Assembly (NCBI GenBank): GCA_003599255.1
Contig: QZJF01000017.1
Coordinates: forward strand, 179,278-240,707
Length of the DNA: 61,430 nucleotides
Direction: 5' to 3'
Origin: a candidate division WWE3 bacterium
Lineage (GTDB): Bacteria; Patescibacteriota; WWE3; UBA101185; UBA10185
In this document: positions 3,244 through 28,802 of the stretch, in pieces
How the letters are laid out: each line of letters begins with the position of its first letter
Numbering within the stretch: the first letter of the stretch is position 1
The notes under the pieces: model-generated
Told to the model about the DNA's origin: nothing
Seen by the model: the letters and a program-made list of their open reading frames with translations, nothing else
The model's database searches: none
Program-made: the position numbers and the translations under genes

Positions 3244-3973
3244 ATACCACAGACCTTCATAAAAGAGATAAAAGAACTAATGAACACCAGATATACCCAA
3301 GGGTTTAAGGATTGTAAGTCATTTTAAATAAGGGAAAGTGGTACAACGCCGAATATACTTTTGCTTTACATACGAATCATATCCAAATTAGTTGATTGTT
3401 TCTTTTGTACTATAGAGATCGGTTACTATTGCGGGTTATTAATAACTTACGCACACAAAAATTACTCGTACATAATGTATATTATTGAAATCGATTAATT
3501 ATTTATATAAAATACTACATACAAGTAGTTGTTAAGTACACGAAACCTTAAAATTTTCCGACGGGACCACTTTTTAAATCCCGAAGTTATGTAGTCTATA
3601 GGTTATTTAATGTCTCATAATTTATAAAGCCGGGATTTCTAATACTTGAGGGATTTTGCCTTTCAAGGCAGCGTATTTTACTAGAAAATGTTACTTATTT
3701 GCACTACTTGTCTTATTTTACTTTTCAAGCTTAAAAATATAAATAGTCGTTACCATTATTCATTACACTTGTAAGAAAATTTGTATTTTTGTTGAGTATA
3801 TGATTTATACAATTCTTGATTCATATCTTTGATTTTTTAAATTAACCTTACAAGTTTGATGATACTTTATATTATTGAGTTTTATAACCTAATTTACCTT
3901 AAATGTGTATTGTAGATATTTTAATACTTGCATAGATCTTGCAATGATAATGCTTACAAGTTAGCATATATGT
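3244..3973. other. 730-bp AT-rich gene-free tract containing three copies of CTTACAAGT/ACTTGTAAG
   Basis: No ORF of 60 aa or more in any frame. The 9-mer occurs at 3767-3775 (inverted), 3847-3855 and 3953-3961. The core ACAAGT/ACTTGT also occurs near 3521 and 3706. Confidence 0.5.
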
Positions 3974-5338: not shown

Positions 5339-5970
5339 TGTTGCGCAAAGTACTAACTTACACATTTTTAATATTAGGACTGCTTTTAGATATAGCAGTT
5401 TTCGCAACAGCTAATAGTTACGCCCAGCTGGGGATTGCAACTGTCGGATATTTGGTCCTGGCGTTTTCATTCCTGTTAATATATCCCCGCAAGCACAGAA
5501 AAGCTGCTCAACTCAAACAGGATGATCAGAAAGTGCCGACTTTAAGCCTATCTCCTACGACCGAGGAAGAACCGGTCGAGGATGCAGATAAAAGGTCCTT
5601 CTTACATCTTATATGGAGTGCCGGCATCGCGTTCTTCATTTACTCAATAGTTAATAAGAGATCGGAACTATCCTTCTTTACCAGAGCTGGCGCCGGCTCA
5701 GGAATTACATCTATAGCAGACGCTGATGGAAATAAGATTAATCCGGCGCAAGAACACGCGATGCAAGGATATGTAATTTCCGATATCGACGAGCATGATT
5801 CAGATTCCGTGTATTACGGCTATACAAGGGAGGATGGCAAATGGTACATATCCCGACAAGTACTTGAGGACAATACATTCCGTTATTCAAGTGGCGCTGT
5901 TGATTATCCGTCAGCCTGGAACAGTAGAAAGAACCTAAATTACGACTACTTCTTTAACATCAAACTTTAA
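5338..5970 (+). CDS. Membrane protein, unknown function
   Basis: 210 aa with three hydrophobic helices and an aromatic-rich C-terminal domain. The start overlaps the upstream stop (TAATG), which suggests translational coupling. Confidence 0.5.
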   Translation: MLRKVLTYTFLILGLLLDIAVFATANSYAQLGIATVGYLVLAFSFLLIYPRKHRKAAQLKQDDQKVPTLSLSPTTEEEPVEDADKRSFLHLIWSAGIAFFIYSIVNKRSELSFFTRAGAGSGITSIADADGNKINPAQEHAMQGYVISDIDEHDSDSVYYGYTREDGKWYISRQVLEDNTFRYSSGAVDYPSAWNSRKNLNYDYFFNIKL

Positions 5971-6075
5971 CCTATATGTAGTTGACCTTTTTGTCACGAT
6001 TGTGTAAAACTGAAATTACGATAGTCGCATTATAAATAAGGAATCGGTTCCCATATACTGCCAAAATAAAAAACT

Positions 6076-6999
6076 ATGCCGGATTTATCAGTAATCATTC
6101 CGACCAGAAATGAAATCTATTTACAACCGACGATTGAGGACATAATCAAAAAAGCCAAATCTTCTGTTGAAATAATAGTTGTTTTAGACGGATACTGGCC
6201 CAATCCACAACTTCCCAGCTATAAAAACGTCATTATAATCCATCAAGGTACCATTTATGAAAATGCAGGTATGCGACAGTGTATAAATGCAGGTATGGCA
6301 GTAGCAAGTGGCACTTTTGTAATGAAATCTGATGGTCATTGTCTGTTTGACGAGGGATTTGACGTCAAGCTTATGGAAGACTGCGAGGATAACTGGGTTG
6401 TAATCCCCCGCAGATACAGGCTTGATGTAGAAAATTGGAAGGTTGCGCCGGATAGAAGACCGCCTATTGATTACCAATTTTTAACATATCCATACATTAA
6501 AACACATGACCCTGCCTGCGGATTGCACGGAGATGACTGGCGCGAAAGATATTTTGAAAGATTGGACATATTAATTGACGATAATATGTCAACACAGGGT
6601 TCGCTCTACTTTATGCCTAGGAGCTGGTGGTTCAAAATGATAGCACCCATGAATGTAGAACTTTACGGTCCGTTTATACAGGAAGCTCAGGAAATATGTA
6701 ATAACACATGGTTAGGGGGCGGACGCGTAGTTGTAAACAAAAAAACCTGGTATGCCCACTGGCATAAAGGAAAGGCGGGTAAGAATTATGGATTTTCAAA
6801 TGATAGGTATGCTTTCCATCAAGCTGAAAGGGACAGGGGCAGAAGGAACTGTATAGACTACTGGGTTAACAATAAATTTCCAAAAAAGGTATATGATTTT
6901 GAATGGCTGATAGAACGGTTTTGGCCCGTGCCGACATGGCCAAAAAACTGGAAGGAACAGTTAATTATTGATAAAGCAAAGGAAGACGCAACCGAATGA
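6076..6999 (+). CDS. GT-A fold glycosyltransferase (GT2-like) with ppGalNAc-T-like DxH...H metal-site pattern
   Basis: LSVIIPTRNE start, DGHC (DxH), and EICNNTWLGGGRVVVNKKTWYAHWHK. The last aligns without gaps to my recollection of the GalNAc-T motif [27 protein letters not shown]. No TM segment. Confidence 0.75.
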   Translation: MPDLSVIIPTRNEIYLQPTIEDIIKKAKSSVEIIVVLDGYWPNPQLPSYKNVIIIHQGTIYENAGMRQCINAGMAVASGTFVMKSDGHCLFDEGFDVKLMEDCEDNWVVIPRRYRLDVENWKVAPDRRPPIDYQFLTYPYIKTHDPACGLHGDDWRERYFERLDILIDDNMSTQGSLYFMPRSWWFKMIAPMNVELYGPFIQEAQEICNNTWLGGGRVVVNKKTWYAHWHKGKAGKNYGFSNDRYAFHQAERDRGRRNCIDYWVNNKFPKKVYDFEWLIERFWPVPTWPKNWKEQLIIDKAKEDATE

Positions 7000-7574
7000 A
7001 AATATTTCTAGATGTGGGTGCCCATACCGGTGAAACCCTAAAAATTGCATTAGAAGATAAATACAAGTTTGAAAAGATTTACTGTTTTGAACCGGTACGC
7101 GAGTGTTGCAATGAGATTCGAAAATTTTCCGACAACAGGGTAACTGTTTGTGAGTTCGGCTTGTGGGATAAGGACGGTTCTAAGCACCTATACAATCCGG
7201 GAAGCAAGGGGGCTTCGGTATTCAAAGATAAATTTAAAGATGAGGTTGCATCCCAAAGCCTTGACTTTGTAAGAGCGAGCAAATGGTTTTCCGAAAACAT
7301 TACTAGCGATGATACTGTGTATCTCAAACTAAACTGTGAGGGTGCAGAGTGCGCGATTTTAGATGACTTAATAGATTCGGGTGAATACAAAAAAATTAAT
7401 GTTGTGATGGTGGATTTCGACGTCAGGAAGATTCCCTCGCAAAAACATCGTATGGAGGAAATGAAGGAGAAACTCAACAAACTCAATATCCCGAAAGTAT
7501 TTTACATTGATGAATATCGCCTTGGGCGTGGTACGCATAATTTTTTTACGCACTACTGGCTGGATAACTCATGA
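6996..7574 (+). CDS. FkbM-family SAM-dependent methyltransferase
   Basis: FLDVGAHTGET...CFEP pattern typical of FkbM methyltransferases. ATGA start/stop overlap with the upstream gene. Confidence 0.7.
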   Translation: MKIFLDVGAHTGETLKIALEDKYKFEKIYCFEPVRECCNEIRKFSDNRVTVCEFGLWDKDGSKHLYNPGSKGASVFKDKFKDEVASQSLDFVRASKWFSENITSDDTVYLKLNCEGAECAILDDLIDSGEYKKINVVMVDFDVRKIPSQKHRMEEMKEKLNKLNIPKVFYIDEYRLGRGTHNFFTHYWLDNS

Positions 7575-8110
7575 AAATTATTACGTTAGAGAAAACAAGA
7601 AATGATCTTGCCCAAGAGTTCAGCGGAATAGGTGCGGAAATAGGTGTGGAACAGGGAGTGTTTTCAGAAATTATTTGTCTTAATAATAATGTGAAGAAGT
7701 TATATTCAATAGATGCGTGGAAGTCGTATAGGGGTTATAGAGATCATGTGCGACAACAGAAACTGGACAGTTTCTATGAGTTAAGTAAAATGCGTTTAGC
7801 AAAATATAATTGCGAAATCGTGCGCAAGTTTAGCAAGGAGGCAGCTTCGGATTTTATTGATGGTGCACTGGATTTTGTTTACATAGATGCGAACCACGAA
7901 TATGCCCACGTTCAAGATGACATTATGTTATGGGTCAAAAAGGTCAGGGTCGGCGGAATTGTAAGCGGCCATGATTATGTGAGAAGAAAAGGACAGGACA
8001 GCTTTTATGGTGTCGTGCGTGCCGTAAACGAATATGTTATTGAAAATAAAATTGAGGAGCTGGTTATTTATCGCGGGGATACCTCTCCGAGTTGGAAGTT
8101 TATAAAATGA
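7571..8110 (+). CDS. Class I SAM-dependent methyltransferase (Methyltransf_24 / CmcI-like)
   Basis: GAEIGVEQG glycine-rich motif, YIDANHEY, GGIVSGHDY. ATGA overlap with the upstream gene. Confidence 0.7.
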   Translation: MKIITLEKTRNDLAQEFSGIGAEIGVEQGVFSEIICLNNNVKKLYSIDAWKSYRGYRDHVRQQKLDSFYELSKMRLAKYNCEIVRKFSKEAASDFIDGALDFVYIDANHEYAHVQDDIMLWVKKVRVGGIVSGHDYVRRKGQDSFYGVVRAVNEYVIENKIEELVIYRGDTSPSWKFIK

Positions 8111-8781
8111 CGACTAATACAACACTAGAATTTATACTCAATAAATTTGGAATCAATTACGATGACAAGACGTCGATGCCGATAGAACTCCCCGGCTTTG
8201 GAAGATATGATCTTGCGTATATGTTTAAGGAGTTGGGATTTAATATCGGTGCGGAAATAGGTGTATATCAGGGTGAATACTCGGAAGTTTTATGTAAAGC
8301 TAATCCGCAAGCGAAACTATTTAGCATAGATCCATGGGAACCTCATGATGAATACACGGCATTTATAAAATCAAAAACATTTGAAAAAGCTTACGAAATG
8401 GCTAAAGCACGTCTCTCGGGTAGAAATTGTGAAATGATAAAGAAAAAGAGTCTTGATGCGGTAAAGGATTTTGCAGATGAATCACTGGACTTTGTGTATA
8501 TAGACGGGGATCATTCATTTCAGGCGTGTACAAACGATATAGTAGAGTGGTCCAAAAAGGTCCGTATGGGAGGCATAGTTGCCGGACACGATTATATAAA
8601 ACATTTGCCGCGATCAATAATCCATGTTTACGAGGTGGTAAACGGATACACTCAGGCTTACAGAATCAGACCCTGGTTTATTACCGCGTCAAAGGTGGTT
8701 ATAAATGGAGTAATTACTCCGGAAGAAAGAACATTCTTTTGGGTTAAAACTCCGTTTCCTGAGCCCAGGAGGTACGACTGA
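8107..8781 (+). CDS. Class I SAM-dependent methyltransferase (paralog of 7571-8110)
   Basis: GAEIGVYQG, YIDGDHSF, GGIVAGHDY. I prefer ATG 8107 (ATGA overlap with the upstream stop) over the track's upstream TTG at 8092. Confidence 0.7.
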   Translation: MTTNTTLEFILNKFGINYDDKTSMPIELPGFGRYDLAYMFKELGFNIGAEIGVYQGEYSEVLCKANPQAKLFSIDPWEPHDEYTAFIKSKTFEKAYEMAKARLSGRNCEMIKKKSLDAVKDFADESLDFVYIDGDHSFQACTNDIVEWSKKVRMGGIVAGHDYIKHLPRSIIHVYEVVNGYTQAYRIRPWFITASKVVINGVITPEERTFFWVKTPFPEPRRYD

Positions 8782-10223
8782 TGAGAATAGCCGTAATAAC
8801 CGCAAATTTAGGAAACTTTGATCCGGTTATCAAGCATGTGGATCAGTCTTTGCCGTGTGACTTTTACAGATTTACTGATGAAAACTTTCCGCCCAGGAGT
8901 AAAGCGATGACTCCAAGACTGCAGGCACGCATCGTAAAAATGTTCGGCTGGCAAATGGTTCCGGGTTACGACTATTATATTTGGGTCGATTCCTCTTTGA
9001 TTTTGTCCGACAAGGATTCTGTAAGTTGGTTTTTAAAACAATGTGAGAGTGTCGACATGGCGGTTTTTAAGCATCCCGAAAGAAACACTATTCAGGAAGA
9101 AGCGGACTTTTTAAAAGAACGCATTAACAGAAAAGACTCTTACATACTTTCAAGATATGAAAATGAATTAGTTGACGAACAACTGGCGGCAATTAAAGCC
9201 GATAAAAGTTTTGCAGATCAAAATTTGTTTGCTTCCAGCGCACTTATTTATAAAAATAATTCAAAAGTACACAATGTTATGTTTCAGTGGTGGCATCACA
9301 CCTCCAGATATCATACGATAGATCAGCTCTCACTCCCCTACGTATTGTTCAAACAAAATTGTTCCGTGAGAATAATACCCGATAATTATTTGAAGACTAC
9401 TTATCTACAACATGTAAGAAAATTTAAAGATCAAGAAGACTGGGATAACCAAAATAAAGAGCAGTATAAAAAAACAGAAGCTGAACTACAAGTGGAAAAG
9501 ATAATGGAAAATCTGGCAAAAGTGGAAAGTCCCCAATTGCAGTTAGACAAACCAAAGGAGGAACCTGAGGGGGTTTCCTCCAACACTACAAACCAGTACC
9601 AACATGTACTGGATTTTTGGCGCGAGTGGCTAGAAGGTAACGGCAAAGCATTTGAAAGATCAGGACGCTTAATTAACAGATTTGACTTTATGCTCAAGGG
9701 AAGAAAAAGGGCAACCATTGCCAACTTAGGAGCCGGCCCGGTGTGTTTAATAGGCAATTGGCGGCGCGATATAAAGGTAAATATAGTATCATCCGATATT
9801 CTGGCCGATGAATACGCGAAAATCCGCAAGGAACTGGACTTAAACCCGCAATATATTGTTGAAAAAGAAGACATGGAGAATCTAAGTTATGGAGATAACT
9901 CATTTGATATTGTTTATTGTGCGAATGCACTTGATCGTACAAAGAATCCTCGCAAAGCTTTGATGGAAATGTTTAGGCTTTGTAAGCCTGACGGATATGT
10001 TTATCTGAGGCACATTGTTGATAATGACTATAGACATTTAGATAAAAGTCCATATAAATGGAAAATAGAATTAATTGAAAGCGTGGATTGCAGATTTTCT
10101 AATTACACTTCAGAACAAAATGGTGAAGGATTTTTACTTTCCGAAGTTTACCAGGGATTTAAATCAAAGGTAGAATTAACTGCAAAGGGGGTGTTGATAA
10201 CTTCCTACGTACAAAAAAAGTAG
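8781..10223 (+). CDS. Fusion protein: DUF616 (TOD1/MUCI70-like) putative glycosyltransferase domain plus C-terminal SAM methyltransferase (Methyltransf_11-like)
   Basis: N-terminus has IAVITANLGNFD...YYIWVDSSL...FKHPERN, which is DUF616-like. The C-terminus has NLGAGP...FDIVYCANALD...LCKPDGYVYL, a class I MTase pattern. The two are joined by a charged linker. Confidence 0.65.
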   Translation: MRIAVITANLGNFDPVIKHVDQSLPCDFYRFTDENFPPRSKAMTPRLQARIVKMFGWQMVPGYDYYIWVDSSLILSDKDSVSWFLKQCESVDMAVFKHPERNTIQEEADFLKERINRKDSYILSRYENELVDEQLAAIKADKSFADQNLFASSALIYKNNSKVHNVMFQWWHHTSRYHTIDQLSLPYVLFKQNCSVRIIPDNYLKTTYLQHVRKFKDQEDWDNQNKEQYKKTEAELQVEKIMENLAKVESPQLQLDKPKEEPEGVSSNTTNQYQHVLDFWREWLEGNGKAFERSGRLINRFDFMLKGRKRATIANLGAGPVCLIGNWRRDIKVNIVSSDILADEYAKIRKELDLNPQYIVEKEDMENLSYGDNSFDIVYCANALDRTKNPRKALMEMFRLCKPDGYVYLRHIVDNDYRHLDKSPYKWKIELIESVDCRFSNYTSEQNGEGFLLSEVYQGFKSKVELTAKGVLITSYVQKK

Positions 10224-10244
10224 ACTTGATGCCCACACACAACT

Positions 10245-10949
10245 ATGGACGATTTAACAATTATCTATTACACAGCAAATAAAAACAGCGACGTTTTTAT
10301 GAGAAGCACTCAGAAAATTTTACTTCATGCAATTGGGGACACACCTATAATAAGTGTTTCGTTCAAACCGACTGTTATCGGAAGTAACTGTAAGAACATT
10401 TGCATTGGTGAACAGAAGCGTTCCAATTATATGATTTACAAACAAGTGTTGCTGGGTGTGCGCGAGGCCAAAACAAAATACGTTGCAATGGCTGAAGATG
10501 ATATGCTCTACTCCCCCGAACACTTTACCTATCGACCGCCTGATGACGAAACATTTTCTTACAATATAAATAAGTGGTCAATATTCTCATGGGTTAAGCC
10601 CCCCTATCTGTCCTATCGTGTAAGAAAATTGATGAATAGTTTGATAACTACAAATTCGGCACTGCAAAAAACGTTGGAGGAAAGATATGAGAAATATCCC
10701 GTGCTGGAAGAAATTCCGAAAGAATTTTTTAAGAAGTATTGGGGCGAGCCCGGGCGATTTGAGAATCATCTCGGCATTTCACCGGTAAAAACCGAGGAGT
10801 TTAGTTCATCCGTCCCTAATATAATGTTTTCTACATCCGAAGCACTGGGTTTTTTAGATTTAGGAGAGAGAAAAGCCCACAGCAATATTAAAGCGGATAA
10901 AGTTGAACCATGGGGTACTGCGGAGGAAATATTAAAGTTGTATGGATAA
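10245..10949 (+). CDS. Uncharacterised protein, putative GT-A-like module (paralog of the C-terminal half of 11485-13215)
   Basis: IIYYTANK...PIISVSFKP...EDDMLYSPEHF matches IIYYTDNK...PIISVSLKP...CEHDVLYHPSHF in the downstream protein. EDD/EHD could be a DxD-type motif. Confidence 0.5.
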   Translation: MDDLTIIYYTANKNSDVFMRSTQKILLHAIGDTPIISVSFKPTVIGSNCKNICIGEQKRSNYMIYKQVLLGVREAKTKYVAMAEDDMLYSPEHFTYRPPDDETFSYNINKWSIFSWVKPPYLSYRVRKLMNSLITTNSALQKTLEERYEKYPVLEEIPKEFFKKYWGEPGRFENHLGISPVKTEEFSSSVPNIMFSTSEALGFLDLGERKAHSNIKADKVEPWGTAEEILKLYG

Positions 10950-10958
10950 TAAATTAAT

Positions 10959-11492
10959 ATGCACCCTGCCTCGTTAGAGATAATGAAAAACTTTATAAAA
11001 TTGTATCTGCCAGATAAGAAATTAAATATCTTGGATTTGGGATGCCGCGTTGTACCCGGACAGGAACACCTCGGATCCTATAGACAACTTATAACAAACA
11101 AAAAATGGAAATACACCGGCGCGGATGTTGAGACCGGAACAAATGTGGACACGGTTATTGAGGACTATGAATTTCCATACAATGATGCTGCATTCGATAT
11201 TGTTATATCAGGACAAACAATAGAACACATTGAATTTCCATGGGTGTGGTTCAAAGAAATGGCACGTGTGCTAAAACCGGGCGGGTATTGTTGCATTATC
11301 GCGCCGGCGGTAATACACGAACACAAATACCCTATAGATACTTTTAGATACTATCCGGACGGTATGCGAGCTCTAGCTAAGTGGAGTAATCTTGAAGTCA
11401 TTGACGTAAGAAGACTTAGGGTTCATAACAAACGAATGGAAGACACGTACCTGATTGCAAAAAAACTGGAGGTAAAGAAGAAAAATGGCTGA
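10959..11492 (+). CDS. Class I SAM-dependent methyltransferase (Methyltransf_11-like)
   Basis: ILDLGCR motif I, FDIVISGQTIEH, LKPGGYCCI, 177 aa. Confidence 0.75.
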   Translation: MHPASLEIMKNFIKLYLPDKKLNILDLGCRVVPGQEHLGSYRQLITNKKWKYTGADVETGTNVDTVIEDYEFPYNDAAFDIVISGQTIEHIEFPWVWFKEMARVLKPGGYCCIIAPAVIHEHKYPIDTFRYYPDGMRALAKWSNLEVIDVRRLRVHNKRMEDTYLIAKKLEVKKKNG

Positions 11493-13215
11493 CTTATCTA
11501 TATTAATACCTTCCCGTAACGAGATGTTCCTGAGAAGAACAGTTGAAAATATCCTTCAAAATATTGAGGGAGACACCGAGATAATTGCGGTTCTGGACGG
11601 AGAGTGGTCCGATCCCGGAATTCCTGATAACAAAAGGGTTAAACTCATATACAACCCGGTCAGTATTGGACAAAGAGCCGCTACAAATCAAGCAGCCCGT
11701 ATGTCCAATTCGAAATATTTAATGAAATGTGATGCACACTGCTCTTTTGATAAAGGTTTTGATATTAAAATGATAAGAGAGATGCGTGATGATTGGACAA
11801 TGGTTCCCTTAATGAGAAACCTCCATGCATTCGATTGGGTCTGCCCTGACGGACATAGGAGATACCAAGGTCCCAGTGGGCCATGTGAAATATGCGGAAA
11901 AGAAACCGTAAGAGATGTTGTGTGGATAGCCAAAGAAAGTCCGAAGAGTACCTCATACTGCTTTGATTCTACTCCACACTTTCAATACTTCGGAGAATTT
12001 ACCAAAAGACCTGAGGGCAAAGGGGATATTACTGAGACGATGTCACTGCAGGGCTCATGCTTTATGCTTACACAGGATAAGTATTGGGAGCTTAATATTT
12101 GCGATGAGAATTTCGGGAGTTGGGGCTCTCAGGGAATAGAGGTAGCGGTTAAAACCTGGCTCTCAGGTGGTCGTGTGATGGTGAATCATAAAACGTGGTA
12201 CGCCCACCTGTTTAGAACACAGGGAGGAGACTTCAGCTTCCCCTACCCCATATCCGGGAAAGATCAGGAAAAAGCCAAGCAGTATGCAAAAGATTTGTTT
12301 TTCAATAATAAGTGGGAAAAGCAGATTCATCCGCTTTTCTGGCTGGTCGAAAAATTTTGGCCGGTAAAGGGTTGGACGGAGGAAGACCTGCGCAAGTTAA
12401 AAAACAACACTTTTTCATTTTCGGAAAGCGCAGCATTAACGGTAAAACCTGTTGAAAGCGAACCTACGGAAGATACTATTTCTCCCGTAAAAACTGAAAT
12501 TGCCGTCACGGTAAACGCCCCGTCTGAAGAGCCTTCGAAGGGAATTATTTATTACACTGATAACAAATTAAAGCTAAAAATTGCTCGGGAAGTACAAAAT
12601 CAGTTAAGAGTAATAAGTAAGAATTTGAACATACCTATTATAAGTGTTTCTCTGAAACCGATGTCACACTTCGGTAATAAAAACATATGGTTAAAGCACT
12701 TAAAAAGGAGTCACTTGGCTATGTTTAAACAGATACTAGCAGCATTAGAAAACAGTACTGCAGATATAATATTTTTCTGTGAACACGATGTTTTATATCA
12801 TCCGTCTCATTTTGATTTCATACCTCCGACAAAAGATAAATTCTATTATAATCAGAACTTTTGGAAATTGCGCGTAGAGGACGGGCACGCGGTACACTTT
12901 GATGCCAACCAGGTAAACGGGATGTGTGTGTACAGAGAATTGGCTCTCAAAGAATACAGAGAAAGAGTCGCTATCGTTGAAAAAAACGGATACGATCGGA
13001 ATATGGGATTTGAACCCGGGACTCACGACGGCAGATTCGGTGTATGGAAATCTCCCCTCCCTATAATAGATATCCGCCACACAAGCAATATGACAAAAAA
13101 TCGTTGGAGTCAGGACGAATTCAGAAACAAAGACAGTTGCCGGGGATGGGTTGAAACGGACGATGAAATTCCGGGTTGGGGAAAAACAAAAGATTTAATT
13201 AAGAAATTGGGTTAG
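11485..13215 (+). CDS. Two-module glycosyltransferase: ppGalNAc-T-like GT-A domain (paralog of 6076-6999) plus a second module (paralog of 10245-10949)
   Basis: LSILIPSRNE, DAHC (DxH), WLSGGRVMVNHKTWYAHLFR, then a P/E/T linker and the IIYYTDNK...CEHDVLY module. It also has a Cys/His insert, CPDGH...CEIC (11842-11895), that is absent from the paralog. Confidence 0.75.
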   Translation: MADLSILIPSRNEMFLRRTVENILQNIEGDTEIIAVLDGEWSDPGIPDNKRVKLIYNPVSIGQRAATNQAARMSNSKYLMKCDAHCSFDKGFDIKMIREMRDDWTMVPLMRNLHAFDWVCPDGHRRYQGPSGPCEICGKETVRDVVWIAKESPKSTSYCFDSTPHFQYFGEFTKRPEGKGDITETMSLQGSCFMLTQDKYWELNICDENFGSWGSQGIEVAVKTWLSGGRVMVNHKTWYAHLFRTQGGDFSFPYPISGKDQEKAKQYAKDLFFNNKWEKQIHPLFWLVEKFWPVKGWTEEDLRKLKNNTFSFSESAALTVKPVESEPTEDTISPVKTEIAVTVNAPSEEPSKGIIYYTDNKLKLKIAREVQNQLRVISKNLNIPIISVSLKPMSHFGNKNIWLKHLKRSHLAMFKQILAALENSTADIIFFCEHDVLYHPSHFDFIPPTKDKFYYNQNFWKLRVEDGHAVHFDANQVNGMCVYRELALKEYRERVAIVEKNGYDRNMGFEPGTHDGRFGVWKSPLPIIDIRHTSNMTKNRWSQDEFRNKDSCRGWVETDDEIPGWGKTKDLIKKLG

Positions 13216-13338
13216 TGTCCCACTACCTTTATCATTATAATAAGTACAGAAATGTATTTGTACTCCCACAAATATTATGAGTAGCACGGCAGAAATTACA
13301 AAATATAAGGCACCTATAGGATTATTTTGGAGTATCCG

Positions 13339-13599
13339 ATGAGCCGCTGGAATAGCTGGAACATGAAATACGGAAAATATTGGATGATTCAGTGGCAGAT
13401 AAATAACTGGGTTTCCTTTGGTATTCACGTAGACTGGAGCAGAAAGTACACCGGAAGAGATCACATTCCTTATGGACCCTATGTAGATATACATTTTCTT
13501 TTTTTTATCTTCAGTTTTGGATACAATCCAAAGTATTCAAATGAGGCGGAATTACTCGCCATTGGGAGAGGGGGTATAGATGCCGACAACGATAACTAA
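13339..13599 (+). CDS. Small Trp-rich hypothetical protein
   Basis: GGAG lies 6 nt upstream of ATG 13339. 86 aa ([24 protein letters not shown]...). Its 3' end overlaps the giant gene start by 20 nt. No family recognised. Confidence 0.35.
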
Positions 13600-16500
13600 A
13601 TACTTCAGTTTTAACTCTACTATAGAAGGATTCACTGGAACTCCGGGCAACGCGTCAACTACAATGACCCGGGATACAACTGAAGACTCAACAAACGATT
13701 CCAACGCTGGTACAGGAACTCTTCAATGTATCACATCAGGTAAGAATAAAAATTCTACATCCACTTGGAATTGGACCGGTACATACGAGAGCATGGGAGT
13801 ACCTGCGGGTGCAGTGGTCACTGATGTAAACATAAACTATGACTACAAATGTTACTCCTATGCTGTTGGTAATACGTGCCATTCAGGACCGCTAACCTTT
13901 GGCGGCACCCAAATATCGGGAGAAAACTCAATAACCGGAACAACTTCTTGGATTACCGTAACAGGAACCGCAATTACGGGATTAACTGATCCTTCCAGCA
14001 CATCAAAAACTATTTCTATTACTCTTGATACTGCTACCGGAAACTCAAATTCAGCTGTTGTAGGGGTTAGAAATGACTGGATAGCCGTATCTATAACTTA
14101 TACGGGAGTATCTCCCAGTGCTTCTATTTCGCCATCGGCTTCAGCTTCGGCGTCGGTGTCTCCTAGCGCATCCGTTAGTCCGAGCGCTTCGATTTCCCCT
14201 TCAGCTAGTGCAAGTGCTTCGATATCTCCTTCAGCTAGCTTATCACCAAGCTCTTCAGCTTCTGCCTCCATCAGTCCCTCTGCCAGTATTTCTCCTAGTT
14301 CTTCACTCTCACCAAGTGTGTCGGTATCCGCTTCAATTTCTCCAAGCCCTTCTCCAGGATCTACCGGGATTGTAGATATGTATGACGAAAAAGAGATGAA
14401 TGATTTTGAATGGCTGGGAGAGGCCGAGGACGGAATGGGGACAGGTCAATCATTCACAGGCGATGGGGGAGTGCTAAAGAGCGCGTATTTCTATCTGGCT
14501 CTTAGCTACGGTACCCCTAGCGGAAACATGTACGCGAAGATATTTGCCCACACTGGGACCTATGGAACTAGTTCCTTACCAACAGGATCGCCTTTAGCAG
14601 TATCTGACCCGGTAGACTCGTCAACTGTAGTCAGTACAGAATATAACTATTTCAATTTTACTTTTTCCGGTGCTAATAAAATTACTTTAGAAAACGGTAC
14701 ATATTACGTATTAACCTTGGAATGGGACGGCATTGGCTCTTCGGCGGCTATTTATTGCGCTACTAACTCTAGTACTGGAAGCCACGGCGGAAATATTTGC
14801 GTCGCTAGTGAAGTTGCTTATCCAACAACAATCTGGGGCGTTAATATTAACGGTGACTTAATCTTTCGCATATTTTCTGATCTTGTGTCACCGTCAGCAA
14901 GTGTGAGTGCGTCTGTATCTCCCAGTGCCTCTACATCTCCAAGCGCATCCATTAGCCCATCGGCCAGCGCAAGCACCTCTGTTTCACCTTCGGCTTCTAT
15001 AAGTCCCTCGGCAAGTGCAAGTGCTTCTGTATCACCCAGCGCGAGTATTTCACCAAGCGCTTCTGTTTCTGTATCTATAAGCCCGTCGGCAAGTGTTTCT
15101 CCAAGTGTCTCTGTATCAGCATCGGTATCACCAAGCGCTTCAATTAGTCCGTCAGCTTCTATATCTCCAAGCACTTCCGCGTCGGCCTCCGTTAGTCCAT
15201 CTGCCTCTATTAGTCCATCTGCGAGTGTAAGTGCTTCTATTTCTCCATCAGCTTCGATTAGTCCCTCAGCCAGTATGTCTCCGTCATCGAGTGCGAGTGA
15301 GTCAATATCTCCAAGCGCATCAATATCTCCGTCAGCATCGGTATCGGCAAGCATCTCGCCGTCCGCTTCAATCAGTCCTTCTGCAAGCGTATCTCCCAGC
15401 GCTTCGGCATCTGCGTCAATCAGTCCTTCGGCAAGCATCTCGCCGTCCGCTTCTTCATCCGCATCCGTGTCACCTTCGGCTTCGTTATCACCAAGTGCCT
15501 CAATATCTCCTTCAGCTTCCGCTTCTGCATCCATAAGCCCGTCGGCATCTGTAAGTCCTTCTGCAAGTATTAGCGCGTCTGTCAGCCCATCAGCCAGCGT
15601 AAGTCCAAGCGCCTCTATTTCACCAAGTTCCTCAGCTTCGGCCTCCGTCTCACCAAGTGCTTCGATAAGTCCTAGCGCCTCAGCTTCAGCATCGGTTTCC
15701 CCATCTGCGAGTGTTTCGCCGTCAACAAGCATTAGTGCTTCTATCAGTCCCTCTGCTTCCGTAAGTCCATCCGCCTCGGCATCGGCTTCAATCAGCCCAA
15801 GCGCATCAATTTCGCCTTCTGCTTCAATTTCTCCCAGTGCTTCCGCGTCGGCATCAGTATCTCCAAGCGCGTCCGTTTCACCAAGTGCGTCCTTATCCGC
15901 GTCAATAAGTCCCTCGGCCAGTGTGAGTCCGAGTGCATCTGTATCTCCGAGCGCTTCAGCTTCGGCGTCTGTTTCACCCAGCGCATCCGTCAGTCCAAGC
16001 GCTTCAATATCTGCGTCCGTTTCGCCCAGTGCGTCAATATCTCCATCAGCTAGCACAAGCGCATCCGTATCCCCCTCGGCCAGTGTTTCTCCGTCAACTA
16101 GTGCGAGTGCTTCTGTTAGTCCATCGGCTTCCGTAAGCCCGTCGGCTAGTATAAGCGCCTCCATTAGTCCTTCTGCTTCAATTAGTCCCTCGGCAAGTGC
16201 AAGTGCTTCTATTTCTCCATCAGCTTCAGTTAGTCCTTCGGCCAGTACTTCCCCATCAGCGAGCGCTAGTGCTTCAATATCCCCCAGCGCTTCAATCAGT
16301 CCGTCCGCAAGCGCCAGTGCTTCTATTTCACCTTCAGCTTCAATCAGTCAATCTGCAAGTATATCTCCGAGCGCGTCAGCTTCGGCCTCCGTATCCCCAT
16401 CGGCAAGTATTTCACCAAGCGCTTCGGTGTCTGCATCAGTTTCGCCAAGTGCGTCCGTAAGTCCGTCAGCAAGCATAAGCGCATCTGTATCTCCCTCGGC

Positions 16501-19500
16501 TTCAGTAAGTCCTAGCGCATCTACGTCTGCTTCAACATCGCCTTCAGCCTCAATAAGCCCTTCCGCAAGTAGTAGCGCTTCTGTTAGCCCCTCAGCTTCA
16601 GTTTCTCCTTCCGCTTCTGTGTCTGCCTCAATCAGTCCCTCTGCCAGTATTTCACCATCAGCGAGCGAGAGTGCGTCCTTATCGCCTAGTGCATCAATAT
16701 CTCCATCAGCCTCGACATCGGCAAGTATCTCACCTTCAGCTTCAATCAGCCCGTCGTCTAGTATTAGCGCATCTGTATCTCCCTCGGCTTCAATTTCTCC
16801 CAGTGCTTCTATTAGTCCGAGTACTTCGGTTTCAGCTTCCGTATCGCCGAGCGCCTCGATAAGTCCTAGTGCATCAGCATCTGCGTCGATAAGTCCTTCA
16901 GCATCAATATCACCGAGCGCGTCGGTTAGTCCTTCAGCTAGTGCGAGTGCTTCTGTTAGTCCTTCGGCTTCTGTCAGCCCATCGGCTAGCGCAAGCGCTT
17001 CCATTAGTCCCTCTGCCTCGATCAGTCCCTCTGCAAGTATTAGTGCATCGATATCTCCATCGGCGTCGGTATCCGCCAGTATTTCACCGTCAGCTAGTGC
17101 AAGCGGGTCAGTATCACCAAGTGCATCAGTAAGCCCGTCGGCAAGCATTAGCGCGTCAATTAGTCCTTCAGCTTCAATCAGTCCGTCGGCAAGTATCAGT
17201 GCCTCTGTTTCGCCATCCGCATCGATTAGCCCCTCGTCTAGCATCAGTGCTTCAATCAGTCCCAGCGCATCAATATCACCTAGTGCATCGGCATCTGCCT
17301 CCGTCAGCCCGTCTGCGAGTGTATCTCCCTCAGCTAGTGCGAGTGCATCGGTATCACCCAGTGCATCCGTAAGTCCATCCGCTTCAGTATCGGGATCAAT
17401 TAGTCCATCAGCTTCGGTTAGTCCCTCGGTGAGCATTAGTGCTTCTGTAAGTCCAAGCGCATCTGTTAGCCCATCAGCTTCGATCTCTGCTTCTATCAGC
17501 CCTTCAGCCAGTGTTAGTCCTAGCGCTTCGGCTTCGGCTTCGGTATCCCCGAGTGCTTCGGTTTCTGCATCAGTATCTCCCAGTTCTTCTATCAGCCCGT
17601 CAGCGAGTATTAGTGCGTCAATATCGCCAAGCGCTTCAGTTAGTCCCAGCGCATCCGGATCTGCATCTATAAGTCCATCTTCTAGCGCTAGTCCTAGTCT
17701 TTCTGTATCAGCTTCAATATCGCCAAGTGCCTCAGTAAGTCCTTCAGCAAGTATCAGTGCCTCAATCAGTCCCAGTTCATCTATCTCGCCAAGTGCCTCG
17801 GTGTCTGCATCGGTATCACCAAGTGCTTCTATATCGCCAAGCGCATCAATTAGTCCATCGGCCAGTGTCTCTGCGAGTGTTTCGCCATCTGCAAGTGTTT
17901 CACCGTCTGCTTCGGTGTCTGCATCCGTAAGCCCAAGTGCATCAGTTTCTCCGTCTGCATCAGTGTCCCCCAGCGCTTCAGCATCCGCATCAGTTTCGCC
18001 ATCTGCCTCGATTAGTCCTTCAGCAAGTACAAGCGCATCAGTTTCTACATCTTCGTCGATTTCGCCCAGCGCTTCGGCATCTGCGTCGGTAAGTCCATCT
18101 GCGAGTGTATCTCCTTCGGCCAGTGCGAGTGGGTCTATATCACCAAGTGCTTCTATTAGCCCCAGCGCATCAGCTTCAGCGTCAATTTCGCCATCTGCCT
18201 CGATTAGTCCTTCTGCCTCGCTATCCTCTTCGGTTAGTCCGTCGGCTAGTGTGTCCCCAAGTGCGTCAATTTCTGCATCAATAAGTCCAAGCGCATCGAT
18301 TTCTCCATCAGCATCAATTAGTCCCTCGGCCAGTGCAAGTGCTTCTATATCGCCAAGTGCTTCAACTAGTCCATCGGCAAGTATCAGTGCTTCTCTAAGT
18401 CCTTCAGCAAGTGTTTCGCCCAGCGCGTCCGCGTCGGGATCTGTCTCTGCATCTGTATCTCCCTCGGCCAGCGCAAGTGCTTCTGTTAGTCCATCAGCGT
18501 CGGTTAGTCCATCGGCTAGCATAAGTGCATCCGTGTCTCCATCGACCAGCATTTCCCCGTCAGCTAGTGCAAGTGCTTCTATATCGCCCAGCGCATCAGT
18601 TAGTCCAAGTTCGTCCGGTTCAGCTTCAACATCTCCGAGTGCTTCCTTATCGGCATCAATTTCGCCTTCCGCATCAATAAGTCCATCCGCAAGTATCAGT
18701 GCCTCCCTAAGTCCTTCCGCGAGTGTTTCTCCGAGCCCGTCGGTATCTGCGTCAGTATCTCCCAGTGCTTCTATATCGCCCAGCGCATCAGTTAGTCCAT
18801 CAGCTAGTACAAGTGCTTCTGTTAGTCCATCAGCGTCGGTTAGTCCGTCGGCAAGCATAAGCGCTTCCATTAGCCCTTCAGCGTCATTAAGTCCGTCTGC
18901 TAGCGTTAGCTCTTCAGTAAGTCCTTCAGCTTCAATCAGCCCAAGCGCTTCAGCATCCGCATCCGTATCGCCAAGTTCATCTATATCTCCATCCGCACCT
19001 ATCAGTAGTCCCAGTGCATCCGTTAGCCCTTCTGCAAGTATCAGCGCGTCGGTTTCTCCTTCAGCTTCAGTAAGTCCTTCAGCCAGCGTCAGTGCTTCTG
19101 TGTCACCGAGCGCATCAATAAGCCCGAGTGCCTCTATCTCTGTATCAGTAAGTCCATCAGCTTCAATATCAGCCTCTATATCTCCTTCCGCATCAATAAG
19201 CCCATCGGCGAGTGCAAGTGCGTCAGTATCGCCCTCAGCAAGTGTTTCTCCATCGGCAAGCATTAGCACATCGATTAGTCCTTCAGCCTCAATAAGTCCT
19301 AGTGCCTCGCTATCCACATCAGTATCTCCAAGCGCAAGTATCTCGGCCTCTGCCAGTGTGAGCGCGTCAGTAAGTCCGTCAGCTAGCATTTCCCCGAGCG
19401 CGTCACTTTCAGCTTCGCTGAGTCCTAGTGCGTCAATATCCCCAAGTACAAGCGCCAGCGCATCTGAAAGTCCTTCAGCAAGTATCAGTGCCTCTGTCAG

Positions 19501-20551
19501 CCCAAGCACATCCGTTTCAGCGTCAATATCTCCTAGTGCCAGTTTGTCACCTAGCGCATCGATCTCTCCCAGTGCGTCTGTTTCTGCATCAATAAGTCCG
19601 TCGGCATCGATATCGCCATCGGCAAGTATCAGTGCATCGGTTAGCCCATCTGCCAGTGTCAGTGCCTCCCTATCTCCTTCAGCCTCACTTTCAACGTCGG
19701 TATCACCTAGTGCCTCGTTATCTGCATCAATGTCGCCATCGGCAAGTGTCAGCGCATCAATTTCGCCGTCTGCATCCAGATCTCCAAGCGCATCCGCTTC
19801 TGCGTCAGTATCACCCAGCGCCAGTTTGTCTCCATCTGCATCGGTTTCACCAAGCGCGTCCATTTCTGCATCGATATCGCCGTCAGCAAGTGTTAGTGCT
19901 TCTGTTAGTCCATCGGCCAGTGAAAGTTTATCCGTCAGTCCCAGCGCATCTGTGTCACCAAGCGCGTCGGTCTCGCCTTCGGCAAGTGCCAGCGGTTCAA
20001 TGTCTCCATCGGCAAGCATCTCGCCCAGCGCATCAATATCTCCAAGTGCAAGTTTGTCCCCATCTGCGTCAGAAAGCGCATCAACCTCGCCGTCGTTATC
20101 TGTATCGCCGAGCGCGTCTCTCAGTCCCTCATCATCGGAATCGGCAAGTGTCAGCCCGTCAGCTCCATCGCCATCATCAGCCTCTCCTACTCCTTCAGAG
20201 GAGTCCGAGTCAGAATCACCTTCGCCGTCTAAAAAGACTGCTTCGGCAAGTGTTAGTCCCTCTGCATCCGTGTCACCTTCGCCAAGCCCTGTACTTCCTC
20301 CGGTTGTTCCTTTACTTACGCAAACCGAGCCGGTAATAAATAGAAATGCCCATATTGTGGTAAGTAGAACCAAAGGGGTACCTTATCACGCACATCGGAC
20401 TGCCCAATACGTAATCTCATCATGGAACACACTCGGCAGACCGAAGAATGCAAAAATCGGAACAATCGGCTTTAATTTTGAAACCAGTAGTTTAGAAATC
20501 TGGATCGGGAAACAATGGTTAAGTTTGCCAATGAAAAAAATTGTGGTATAG
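13580..20551 (+). CDS. Giant (2323 aa) Ser/Pro/Ala-rich repeat protein, putative heavily O-glycosylated surface fibre
   Basis: A strong purine-rich RBS (GGGAGAGGGGG) precedes ATG 13580. Layout is a ~177-aa N-terminal domain, an 82-aa SPSAS repeat, a ~177-aa globular domain, a ~1800-aa SPSAS[IVLA] repeat, then a ~90-aa C-terminal domain. No N-terminal signal peptide or twin-arginine motif is visible. Confidence 0.85.
14111..14356 (+). repeat. Short SPSAS[IVL] coding repeat block 1
   Basis: 18-nt hexapeptide units with occasional 12-nt S[AV]S[IV] inserts. All six Ser codons are used within 14111-14242. Confidence 0.9.
14888..20290 (+). repeat. 5.4-kb degenerate coding repeat block 2 (SPSAS[IVLAT] hexapeptides punctuated by S[AV]S[IV])
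   Basis: Read directly from the translation. Super-units of 16 or 22 aa (2-3 hexapeptides plus one tetrapeptide). The DNA copies differ by synonymous codon choice. Confidence 0.9.
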
Positions 20552-20832: not shown

Positions 20833-21051
20833 ATGGGTATAATCAACTTCTTTAAAAACTTAAGTCCGACTGAATGGGTAGTCATCCTTGTTATTTTATT
20901 TGTTTTATTCGGCAGCAAAGTGCTCATGAAAATTGGAAAAACCGGAGGAGAAACTTTTAAAGAAATGAAAAAGGTTAAGAAAAGCTTCATGGATGCAGTT
21001 AATGATGATACTGACGTGAAGCCGGAAGGGGGTACAAAGGAAAATGTTTAG
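20833..21051 (+). CDS. tatA: Sec-independent translocase subunit TatA/E
   Basis: Internal ATG of track ORF 20749-21051. MGIINFFKNLSPTEWVVILVILFVLFGSKVL...KEMKK is the typical TatA TM helix, LFGSK hinge and amphipathic helix. Confidence 0.8.
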   Translation: MGIINFFKNLSPTEWVVILVILFVLFGSKVLMKIGKTGGETFKEMKKVKKSFMDAVNDDTDVKPEGGTKENV

Positions 21052-21208
21052 ATCACTAGGAACAACCGAGTGGATAGTAATTACCGTTATCGTGGTAGTT
21101 CTCTTGGGAAGTAAGAAGCTTCCGGAATTTTTCAAGGGAGTTTCTGATGCTGTGAAGGAATTCAAAAAAGCAGCAAAAGACGAGGGTGAACAAGAGAAAA
21201 AAGTCTGA
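21044..21208 (+). CDS. tatA: Second TatA/E-family subunit (54 aa, below the ORF-track cutoff)
   Basis: My own translation is MFRSLGTTEWIVITVIVVVLLGSKKLPEFFKGVSDAVKEFKKAAKDEGEQEKKV*. The start overlaps the first tatA stop by 8 nt. Confidence 0.75.
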   Translation: MFRSLGTTEWIVITVIVVVLLGSKKLPEFFKGVSDAVKEFKKAAKDEGEQEKKV

Positions 21209-21220
21209 TAAGCTTTTGCT

Positions 21221-21979
21221 GTGGACAATATTATTTCTCCCGAACTTGCCGAAGTAGTAAAAAAATATTCCCGCTTTTTTGAAGAGGTACGCAGACGTAT
21301 CCTCTTTACTTTCATTTTCTTTATTGTTGCAGCTTTTCTAGGTTTCATCTTTTACGAACAGATTGTTCGGTTTCTCATTGTTTCACTGAGTTTGGAAAAG
21401 ATCAATATAGTCTTCACCTCTCCGTTCCAGTTTATAAATCTTGCAATCGGTTGCGGAGTAGTGACAGGATTGGTTGCTGTTGTCCCGCTAATTATTTTTC
21501 AAATCCTGGCTTTTCTCAGACCCGCCTTAAAGGCCAAAGAGTTTAGAGCGACTTTAAGATTTCTGCCGTTTTCTATTTTTTTATTTATATTTGGATTTGT
21601 TTTCGGGATCCTAGTAATGAAATGGCAAATTGGGTTATTTCTGGAAAAAGCTGCTGCATTAAATATCGGAAATATTTTGGACATTAGCGGTATCTTGAAT
21701 ACCACACTTCTAATAGGAGCGATTATGGGAATTGCGTTTCAATTGCCAGTAATATTGTTACTGCTTCTGAACGTAGGAGTGTTAAGCCGTAAACAATTAA
21801 CTTCAAAAAGACCTTGGGTATATTTGGGATCATTTATTTTTACAATGTTTCTGCCAATAGATTCTGTCCTGGCAGATCTTTTTTTAGCACTGCCCATGAT
21901 CATACTGTTTGAAATAACACTGTTTCTCAATCTGATTAGCAAAAATAATTTAAAGAGTATTCTTAAATTGGGACATTAA
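21221..21979 (+). CDS. tatC: Sec-independent translocase subunit TatC
   Basis: 252 aa with six hydrophobic helices and an N-terminal FEEVRRRIL pattern. It follows two tatA genes. GTG start. Confidence 0.85.
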   Translation: MDNIISPELAEVVKKYSRFFEEVRRRILFTFIFFIVAAFLGFIFYEQIVRFLIVSLSLEKINIVFTSPFQFINLAIGCGVVTGLVAVVPLIIFQILAFLRPALKAKEFRATLRFLPFSIFLFIFGFVFGILVMKWQIGLFLEKAAALNIGNILDISGILNTTLLIGAIMGIAFQLPVILLLLLNVGVLSRKQLTSKRPWVYLGSFIFTMFLPIDSVLADLFLALPMIILFEITLFLNLISKNNLKSILKLGH

Positions 21980-28169: not shown

Positions 28170-28802
28170 ATGACCTATAAAACAAATACTATAAGACGGA
28201 TTTATCGGTGTGTTACTATATATTTAATGTCCTTTTTGAACGGTATTATCCATCAGAGTTTTAGAAGAAAAATAGTTCTTCTTGTCATACCTCTTATTAC
28301 AGCCATTGTGCTTGTGTTTGTTAGTTTAGACTCCTCTGCCTCCGATACCACTGTATTATCCAATAACTCTACGCGTAGCGATTGGGGGTACAAAGTTACA
28401 AGAGTGGTGGATGGTGACACTTTGGAAGTGGAAATTGACGGTTCCATGCAGAAGGTTCGACTGATAGGTGTCGACACACCGGAAACCAGCGATCCCAGGA
28501 AAGAGGTTGAGTGTTTTGGCAAAGAATCCTCAAGCAAAACAAGAGAATTAGTTGAGGGAAAATTTGTCAGACTAGAGCAAGATGAAACCCAAAACGACAA
28601 AGACAGGTACGGTAGACTCTTGAGGTATGTTTATATGGAAGAATCAGTGAACCTAAACCTTTATTTACTGCAAAACGGTTACGCGTACGAGTATACGTAT
28701 GAGAAGCCTTATAAATTCCAGGAAGAATTTAAACATGCTGAAACCAATGCCAGGGAAAAAGAGTTGGGCTTATGGGATCCTTTAACTTGTCCGGTTCAAT
28801 AA
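28170..28802 (+). CDS. Thermonuclease (staphylococcal nuclease, SNase-like), membrane-anchored or secreted
   Basis: VVDGDTLEV...VRLIGVDTPE...RYGRLLRYVY...LLQNGYAYEY are classic SNase motifs. There is an N-terminal TM helix. The true start may be an internal Met. Confidence 0.8.
   Translation: MTYKTNTIRRIYRCVTIYLMSFLNGIIHQSFRRKIVLLVIPLITAIVLVFVSLDSSASDTTVLSNNSTRSDWGYKVTRVVDGDTLEVEIDGSMQKVRLIGVDTPETSDPRKEVECFGKESSSKTRELVEGKFVRLEQDETQNDKDRYGRLLRYVYMEESVNLNLYLLQNGYAYEYTYEKPYKFQEEFKHAETNAREKELGLWDPLTCPVQ

Follow-up and report, generated by a model that had tools for sequence, protein, structure and literature searches.

We report a giant serine-rich repeat gene, and the protein family to which it belongs, in a 61,430-nt stretch of DNA from a candidate division WWE3 bacterium (contig QZJF01000017.1, positions 179,278 to 240,707; the whole of this stretch is called the window below). 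On balance, and with modest confidence, we read the gene product as a surface fibre of a bacterium of the CPR (candidate phyla radiation; also called Patescibacteria) that is built from phage-fibre modules, O-glycosylated in the cytoplasm and exported by a nonclassical route. The searchable literature, queried by motif and by topic, held no description of this family, which we consider both undescribed and unannotated; its members, presumptive Ser-rich fibres made of phage-fibre parts, lack an export signal and are mostly encoded next to the genes for twin-arginine translocation (Tat). The original prediction, made from the DNA letters alone, had pointed to the repeat gene and to its missing signal, and to these we add the upstream cluster of glycosyltransferase (GT) and methyltransferase (MT) genes, a 64-aa paralogue of the conserved C-terminal module (CTD) and the descent of the domains from phage tail fibres.

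The predicted giant gene is real, and consists of one intact open reading frame (ORF) whose product is dominated by three residues (Ser 43%, Ala 16%, Pro 11%; coordinates in table 1). Its start codon is fixed by an in-frame TAG immediately 5' of the ATG (13577–13579) together with a strong ribosome-binding site, which excludes an upstream in-frame signal peptide; a missed upstream start is further ruled out by the roughly 20 homologues that are equally signal-less. The boundaries first given for the nonrepeat domains hold to within a few codons, and a C-terminal part does exist as proposed, although the supposed ~90-aa C-terminus is actually a linker plus a conserved module of ~75 aa. Pfam matches none of the three nonrepeat parts.

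The repeat obeys a simple peptide grammar. There are 195 SPSAS units in the protein, consecutive prolines in the tract lie either 6 aa apart (110 cases) or 10 aa apart (101 cases), and the dominant period is 16 aa, corresponding to (SPSASx)2 + SASx. The main tract contains 916 Ser and Thr residues with only seven charged residues, and by computation would measure about 550–600 nm if fully extended. At the DNA level the copies are far more heterogeneous: within the tract, the entropy of Ser-codon choice reaches 2.51 out of at most 2.58 bits, with Ala, Pro and Ile also near their maxima, and all six Ser codons indeed occur within 14111–14242, as had been noted. No exact DNA repeat in the ORF is longer than 37 nt (the longest has copies at 18474 and 18810), and TRF detects only patchy arrays of 2–3 copies at 64–86% identity. 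The claim of a peptide repeat conserved over divergent DNA is hence supported. The same holds across the family, in which Ser-codon entropy is near-maximal in all members (2.24–2.53 bits) and exact repeats are mostly short.

The further inference that DNA identity is actively avoided was not supported by comparison with a null model in which the peptide is kept and synonymous codons are shuffled. Under this null the longest exact repeat is 22 ± 2 nt (observed, 37 nt) and the number of positions in repeated 15-mers is 188 ± 35 (observed, 720), whereas the same-codon fraction between units equals the null at offsets of 6, 10, 16, 22 and 32 aa (|z| < 2) and shows a slight deficit at +2 aa (z = −2.6). 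The tract is therefore less scrambled than its synonymous shuffles, and active codon scrambling beyond chance is not supported. Averaged over 25 family members, the codon-identity z falls slightly below zero out of register (−0.45, −0.56 and −0.89 for offsets of 2, 4 and 8) and slightly above it in register (+0.17 to +0.65 for offsets of 6, 10, 12 and 16), a pattern that fits a weak residual position-specific codon preference, such as that of the first Ser of the repeat unit for AGT. Because codon identity matches the null and shared k-mers exceed it, the tract is explained by purifying selection on the peptide, saturated synonymous sites and old duplications, with a few younger segmental duplications, and not by active avoidance of identity; near-random synonymous codon use then reflects long-term peptide selection without sequence homogenisation. 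Selection against recombination in the tract is possible. A 5-kb peptide repeat maintained over fully randomised synonymous sites is also a clean case from nature, which can serve as a benchmark in studies of repeat evolution and in designing repeat genes that are proof against recombination.

These properties also bear on whether the tract could be a collapsed or chimeric product of assembly, which we consider extremely improbable. The assembly is of metagenome type and gene callers mishandle such tracts; indeed, the antisense strand is also stop-free over long distances (ORFs 16348–20373 (−), 1341 aa, and 14818–16164 (−), 448 aa), and at locus L006 the public gene call is an antisense ORF of 1073 aa (5452–8673, −) that cuts the true 2105-aa gene to an 84-aa fragment, so that the family is probably widely mis-annotated. 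However, long exact repeats, which the original prediction had named as the outcome that would count against it, do not dominate the tract, and the 37-nt longest repeat together with the patchy TRF arrays rules out recent expansion and assembly collapse alike. A 37-nt repeat is shorter than a short read, so short reads can place the tract uniquely and collapse is not expected. Additionally, the frame stays open for 6969 nt and joins domains that have independent homologues, and giants of similar size are present in many independent assemblies, including a chromosome-level one (OZ246401.1, locus L049) that carries an intact homologue of 2372 aa.

A search with the CTD alignment recovered 13 genomic loci, all from Microgenomates lineages of the Patescibacteria (Woese-, Levy- and Collierbacteria), the CTD as a single sequence matching three fragments, and a TatC-anchored scan added ~33 further giants. 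The hosts are Woese-, Levy-, Collier-, Davies- and Roizmanbacteria or unclassified Patescibacteria. Full-length members range from 983 to 2372 aa and combine several unrelated head types with an SPSxS stalk and the conserved CTD. Two or more Ser-rich giants stand in tandem before the small paralogue and tat in some genomes (L007, at 3974–10252 and 10413–14700; L018; L019; L074), and giants at L008/L023 and L074 appear split into pieces of 430–560 aa, which may be frameshifts, assembly breaks or pseudogenes. Many of the metagenome-assembled genomes deposited as third-party annotation (TPA) that carry Microgenomates-type loci (L010–L012, L015, L017, L018 and many of L021–L092) have record titles such as "uncultured Gammaproteobacteria", "Oligoflexia" or "Pseudomonadales"; these proteobacterial titles are probably taxonomic mislabels.

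The central M domain has relatives in phage tail modules. Its 69 relatives are all stand-alone proteins of ~180 aa, and in five of five sampled contigs they lie in such modules, the genes around them including ones of SU10 type (portal, capsid and adaptor), ones for large LamG tail proteins and, just downstream, endolysins. The AlphaFold2 model of the M domain is a beta-sandwich (pLDDT 92) for which Foldseek returns, in the PDB, phi812 baseplate proteins, the lectin-like domain of Cwp84 and CBM6/4 and, in BFVD, 44 matches at E ≤ 1e-3, mostly phage minor tail proteins. Among these viral fold matches is a phage "glycine-rich domain-containing protein", and the head of the family member at L006 is itself a Gly_rich_2 phage-fibre domain. 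The modelled receptor-binding, carbohydrate-binding or lectin type of fold, the phage tail-fibre relatives, the Gly_rich_2 head at L006 and the tandem paralogous giants together point to a surface or adhesive character.

The N-terminal domain, by comparison, is nearly an orphan: it has no Pfam match, no relative among 5.8 billion proteins and none in a scan of GTDB genomes, and only a weak similarity to the head of the family member at L030 (33% over 64 aa, E 1e-5). The N and M domains are unrelated to each other by comparison, which rules out a mutual duplication. Pfam and PHROGs likewise gave no match for the sequence families F13–F15. As a separate observation, the structural modules of the SU10-like podophage contigs (L001, L004, L096–L098) include glycosyltransferase and methyltransferase genes next to those of the M-domain fibre proteins, and some relatives (P0007) have Ser/Thr-rich tails, which suggests virion glycosylation in those uncultured phages.

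The CTD is the signature of the family. Its consensus (...SWNxxGRPKNxxxGTIGFNFxTxSLEIWxGxxWLxLPMKKI in alignments A1 and A2; family form ...GFNFQTxSLEIWNGSxWLKLPMKKI) corresponds to one copy of a ~45-aa repeat that elsewhere occurs in 3–14 tandem copies in fibrous proteins, one of which carries a T7 tail-fibre N-domain. It matches phrog_1325 (E 8e-7) and, by tblastn, the minor tail proteins of 142 Streptomyces phages, where it sits inside a typical fibre; no match was found in IMG/VR viral contigs. The 64-aa protein encoded directly after the giant in nearly all loci belongs to the same type (phrog_1325, E 4e-8). Of the 27 CTD and small-ORF sequences, 15 match DUF7360 (PF24059; best member E 1.6e-5), and the small ORF of the window scores 17.6 bits against this family, under the Pfam gathering threshold of 27.6 bits. 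The AlphaFold2 model of the CTD is confident only over the last ~40 aa, which form a three-stranded beta meander; the fold search gave nothing significant, the best matches being small trimerisation domains at E ≥ 0.3, a hint only. A Kelch-propeller reading, which had arisen from a weak profile match to a designed Kelch protein, was dropped in favour of the phage-fibre repeat.

This ancestry raises the alternative that the giant is a phage-derived tail fibre, whether from a degraded prophage, from a tailocin-like element or supplied to a phage particle, that is released by lysis and so needs no export signal, the small paralogue then being a tail-fibre assembly or cap protein. Every recognisable module (the M domain, the CTD repeat and the Gly_rich_2 head at L006) is indeed of phage-fibre type, the small gene right after the fibre gene occupies the classic position of a fibre chaperone, L006 has phage-like genes just upstream (for a Phage_phiTE_241_C protein, an M23 peptidase and a Gly-rich protein), and phages with M-domain proteins encode glycosyltransferases and methyltransferases beside them. 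The genomic context, however, is cellular. The 61-kb window contains no capsid, portal, terminase, tail, lysis or integrase genes, and the rest of it is housekeeping in nature (TsaE, an epimerase, CorA, DsbA, BipA, a DEAD-box helicase, a radical SAM enzyme and an ABC transporter), on both sides of the giant, which rules out a prophage context for the gene in this window. The chromosomal position by tat, LysM-M23, Rho and sortase genes is stable across more than 30 genomes; the CTD is absent from IMG/VR contigs and the M domain from GenBank phages; the polarity is reversed relative to phage fibres, with the C-terminus conserved and the N-terminus variable; and the GT and MT genes of the window proved not to be close kin of the phage ones, the sole match being a weak one to an epimerase. 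We consider a phage-derived fibre correspondingly improbable, and return to the cellular surface fibre that we favour.

That this fibre would be glycosylated is suggested by its upstream neighbours. An eight-gene, same-strand cluster (6076..13215, +), devoid of transmembrane (TM) segments, lies directly upstream of the giant gene, and seven of the eight products have recognised family 2 glycosyltransferase (GT2) or MT domains in Pfam. Homologous GT2 and MT genes (families F2, F6 and F10) recur directly upstream of giants in other genomes. Judged from sequence, seven soluble enzymes of this kind, their recurrence elsewhere and a stalk with 916 Ser and Thr residues and few charges make cytoplasmic O-glycosylation plausible. 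Homologues of the two membrane proteins encoded immediately before the cluster (3974–5970) also adjoin giants, at L009, L018/L063, L019, L074, L034 and L052.

No export signal could be recognised in the giant or its relatives. The first 60 aa contain no hydrophobic segment (maximum KD15 0.12); no hydrophobic N-terminus, twin-arginine (RR) motif or TM segment occurs anywhere outside the tract; and the C-terminus has no LPXTG, hydrophobic tail or charged tail. Roughly 20 full-length members likewise lack a signal peptide, lipobox, RR motif, TM segment, LPXTG or known C-terminal sorting signal, and RR is absent from the first 40 aa of every full-length member and of the small paralogues. The absence is hence a property of the family and not an annotation slip, and the original prediction, which remarked that no signal is recognisable although tatA-tatA-tatC follow, can be extended to all of these homologues. 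Since no member has an N-terminal signal, we propose a nonclassical route.

The adjacent translocase itself looks canonical. Aligned to Escherichia coli TatC, the TatC of the window retains E22, F98 and E107, equivalent to E15, F94 and E103 of the E. coli protein, which we take to form the twin-arginine binding site, and these residues are invariant in 12 linked TatCs. To count linkage to the giant, we took from 77 Microgenomates TatC loci those whose sequence extends at least 1.3 kb upstream: the giant and paralogue lie upstream of tat in 30 of the 36 loci whose TatC is at least 50% identical to that of the window, and in 3 of the 31 loci below 50% identity. The order giant, small paralogue, tatA, tatA, tatC is present in 12 of the 13 loci found with the CTD, the block persists where the outer flanks are rearranged, and no convincing terminator was found between its genes.

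One specific form of the export step would make the giant a dedicated, noncanonical cargo of the adjacent TatA-TatA-TatC. Folding, CTD-mediated oligomerisation and glycosylation would all take place in the cytoplasm and precede export, with the CTD and/or the 64-aa paralogue targeting the giant or letting it hitchhike in place of an RR signal. The tight same-strand block within one TatC clade, kept despite differing flanks and without convincing internal terminators, is consistent with this proposal, as is the cytoplasmic nature of the GT and MT enzymes, which implies that a cargo would be modified before export, Tat being the known route for folded proteins (PMC6708511). The known substrates phoD and efeB are also encoded in or beside tatC loci in Bacilli (PMC3827258), and Microgenomates that lack the giant hold other large signal-less proteins upstream of tat, one of them with a beta-helix. 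Against it, there is no RR motif in the giant, the small ORF or any neighbour, and Tat transport is held to depend on an N-terminal RR signal (PMC6708511). The linkage is restricted to one clade and could be inherited synteny, and a canonical TatC probably serves ordinary RR substrates elsewhere in the genome. Moreover, we know of no precedent for Tat moving a glycosylated 214-kDa fibre of ~0.5 micron. We therefore judge Tat export of the giant unlikely, if conceivable. Distinctly unlikely is the fuller proposal that a CPR clade exports a pre-folded, cytoplasmically glycosylated fibre of ~0.5 micron through TatA-TatA-TatC without RR, targeted by the CTD and the paralogue, with heads traded with phages; were such trading to occur, epibiont and phages would use one adhesion toolkit.

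Two further observations concern Tat loci and signals. Where Microgenomates tat loci have no SPS giant, its same-strand place directly upstream of tatA-tatC is taken by either of two further conserved gene sets, encoding proteins of ~523, 141 and 170 aa (set 1) or of ~964–981, 135, 106 and 432–440 aa (set 2; alternative-set loci include L028, at 3325–8516, L061, at 3072–8011, and L029, L044, L046, L047, L055–L057, L059, L060, L065, L066 and L068). These proteins have no signal peptide and no Pfam or PHROGs match except for a right-handed Beta_helix region in the ~435-aa protein. Within the window, a staphylococcal-nuclease homologue (28227–28802) begins ...HQSFRRKIVLLVIPLITAIVLVFV, an RR pair followed by a very hydrophobic segment that may act as a signal for Tat or Sec or as a membrane anchor, and this is the only RR-type N-terminus of the window apart from that of TatC itself.

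In architecture the giant is analogous to the serine-rich repeat proteins (SRRPs) of Gram-positive bacteria (Fap1, GspB, PsrP, SraP and the Lactobacillus reuteri SRRP), which share the succession of a short serine-rich repeat region (SRR1), a binding domain, a long repeat region (SRR2) and a C-terminal attachment element; the extra N-terminal head before the short repeat block is found in the giant only. SRRPs are glycosylated in the cytoplasm before export by a dedicated, co-encoded translocase, and their GT genes are adjacent (PMC7948813, PMC6973325, PMC5578698), just as GT genes and a translocase locus adjoin the giant gene. The differences are nonetheless considerable. SRRPs have a ~90-aa accessory Sec (aSec) signal peptide and LPXTG, of which the giant has neither, and their loci encode secA2/secY2/asp, which are not among the ~40 Pfam-annotated ORFs of the window (including all neighbours within 13 kb upstream and 8 kb downstream), where the adjacent translocase is Tat. 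The SRRP enzymes are GtfA/GtfB, whereas the giant is accompanied by soluble GT2-type enzymes and several methyltransferases that are not GtfA/B homologues and whose role is predicted; the repeat is of the SASx/SESx dipeptide type in SRRPs and SPSASx in the giant; and, unlike SRRPs, the giant has globular and C-terminal modules of phage-fibre type and a CPR host.

Phage tail fibres and receptor-binding proteins (actinophage minor tail proteins, T7-type fibres and the distal fibre proteins of SU10-like podophages) share with the giant the M-domain relatives and fold, the CTD repeat type (phrog_1325, 142 Streptomyces phages), the missing signal peptide and a small accessory gene after the fibre gene. 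The giant differs in being chromosomal, in a housekeeping context without virion genes in the 61-kb window; its 1750-aa Ser/Pro/Ala stalk would be an unusual fibre shaft; and, where phage fibres conserve the N-terminal virion-attachment part and vary the C-terminal receptor-binding part, the giant does the opposite. Very large surface proteins in general are made of folded repeat domains and carry recognised export signals and anchors, whereas the giant is of low complexity, presumably glycosylated, and signal-less. Among them, the Giant1–5 proteins of Apilactobacillus kunkeei and the trimeric autotransporter adhesins resemble the giant as multi-thousand-residue fibres with distal binding heads and lineage-specific turnover (PMC12863079, PMC13082670); the trimeric autotransporter adhesins have a known C-terminal outer-membrane anchor. 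The Bacillus subtilis phoD-tatAd-tatCd locus and efeB near tatAy-tatCy offer the parallel of a candidate cargo gene directly upstream of a same-strand, TatA/TatC-only translocase (PMC3827258). PhoD and EfeB carry canonical RR signal peptides, whereas the giant, a putative cargo, lacks this defining feature of a Tat substrate (an S/T-R-R-x-F-L-K signal) yet shows the supportive linkage to tatA/tatC.

We hypothesize the following course for the fibre. Two globular heads, a near-orphan domain and a lectin-like beta-sandwich as in phage receptor-binding domains, would stand at the N-terminal end of a stalk of ~1750 residues of SPSASx/SASx, and the terminal phage-fibre beta module would probably oligomerise or dock the fibre, perhaps with the 64-aa paralogue. 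While the stalk is still in the cytoplasm, the soluble GT2 and MT enzymes encoded upstream would decorate it with O-linked, probably methylated, sugars, and the finished glycoprotein would reach the surface by a nonclassical, possibly Tat-linked, route, to act there as a long adhesive or protective structure whose distal heads are exchanged between lineages. The protein had at the outset been called an apparently extracellular fibre, a term that we keep in a presumptive sense.

Several points weigh against this interpretation. The gene, its family, the domain relationships, the synteny, the missing signals and the codon statistics are observed, but glycosylation, surface location, the role of the CTD and the export route we infer indirectly. 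The GT and MT genes could serve cell-wall polysaccharide synthesis instead, given that an epimerase and a membrane GT2 are encoded just upstream of the cluster. The tat linkage could be a gene order inherited within one clade, as its rarity in more distant Microgenomates (3 of 31) would allow, and TatC keeps the residues that bind RR signals. The CTD model is confident over only part of its length and gave no significant fold match. Finally, all full-length members lack any known export or sorting signal, and a cytoplasmic or lysis-dependent fate is hence compatible with the data.

In the first of these fates, the protein would be intracellular, either as a cytoplasmic or membrane-proximal scaffold or as a rarely expressed low-complexity relic, with the GT/MT genes and tat unrelated to it. 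The missing export and anchoring signals agree with this, the GT/MT cluster could belong to cell-wall glycan synthesis, and tat may be a bystander, TatC being canonical. However, dozens of genomes keep an intact 7-kb ORF in which synonymous sites are saturated yet purifying selection maintains the repeat peptide, the heads are of lectin or receptor-binding protein type, surface proteins typically show such turnover of heads and such tandem paralogues, and the GT/MT and tat neighbours recur. We regard an intracellular role as quite improbable, and continue to favour the surface fibre.

CPR bacteria are ultra-small, and the members investigated to date live attached to host cells. To our knowledge, few accounts exist of how their long surface appendages (seen by cryo-electron microscopy) are built and how they attach to their hosts. 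The locus defines a widespread unannotated family of giant, probably glycosylated fibres with phage tail-fibre modules, swappable heads and a conserved tail module, which, if on the surface, would be prime candidates for host attachment or phage interaction in Microgenomates. Additionally, a signal-less family with a conserved Tat linkage provides a concrete, testable case for noncanonical export of folded or glycosylated cargo.

Table 1. Features of the giant gene and its neighbourhood, numbered from the first letter of the window.
Feature	Position	Strand	Remarks
Y1_Tnp-like, TM and SH3 membrane protein	3974–5338	+	IS200-type Y1 transposase-like N-domain, one TM segment, C-terminal SH3
Membrane protein, 210 aa	5338–5970	+	three TM segments
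GT2	6076–6999	+	
MT	6996–7574	+	
MT	7571–8110	+	
MT	8092–8781	+	
GT-like plus MT	8781–10223	+	
234-aa protein	10245–10949	+	clusters with the GT2 family
MT	10959–11492	+	
GT2	11485–13215	+	
Small ORF, 99 aa	13195–13494	−	one hydrophobic segment
Small ORF, 90 aa	13327–13599	+	no homologue in L006–L019
Ribosome-binding site of giant gene, GGGAGAGGGGG	13565..13574	+	read in the sequence
Giant Ser-rich repeat protein gene	13580..20551	+	single uninterrupted ORF, 2323 aa, 214 kDa, isoelectric point 4.7
N-terminal head domain, aa 1–177	13580..14110	+	near-orphan
Short SPSAS repeat block, aa 178–259	14111..14356	+	all six Ser codons present
Central M domain, aa 260–435	14357..14884	+	modelled as an all-beta sandwich of phage receptor-binding/carbohydrate-binding type
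Main SPSAS[x]/SAS[x] tract, aa 436–2192	14885..20155	+	proposed O-glycosylated stalk
Pro/Ser/Glu-rich linker	20156..20314	+	
Conserved C-terminal module (CTD), aa 2246–2323	20315..20548	+	single phage tail-fibre repeat copy, family signature
Free-standing CTD paralogue, 64 aa	20594..20788	+	aligns over its full length with CTDs; N-terminal half more hydrophobic
tatA, copy 1	20833..21051	+	Pfam TatA_B_E, E 1.5e-9
tatA, copy 2	21044..21208	+	overlaps the end of copy 1 by 8 nt; one TM segment
tatC	21221..21979	+	Pfam TatC, E 1e-37

Promoter and terminator scans around the giant gene were uninformative, and no sigma-70-like promoter was found on the + strand of the 364-bp gap that precedes the gene (13216–13579), where two small ORFs overlap (table 1). 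Further upstream, between the membrane GT2 gene and the Y1-SH3 gene, lies a 730-bp AT-rich stretch (3244–3973, GC ~0.32) with no ORF of at least 100 aa in any frame and no Rfam match, its one translated frame being interrupted by stops.

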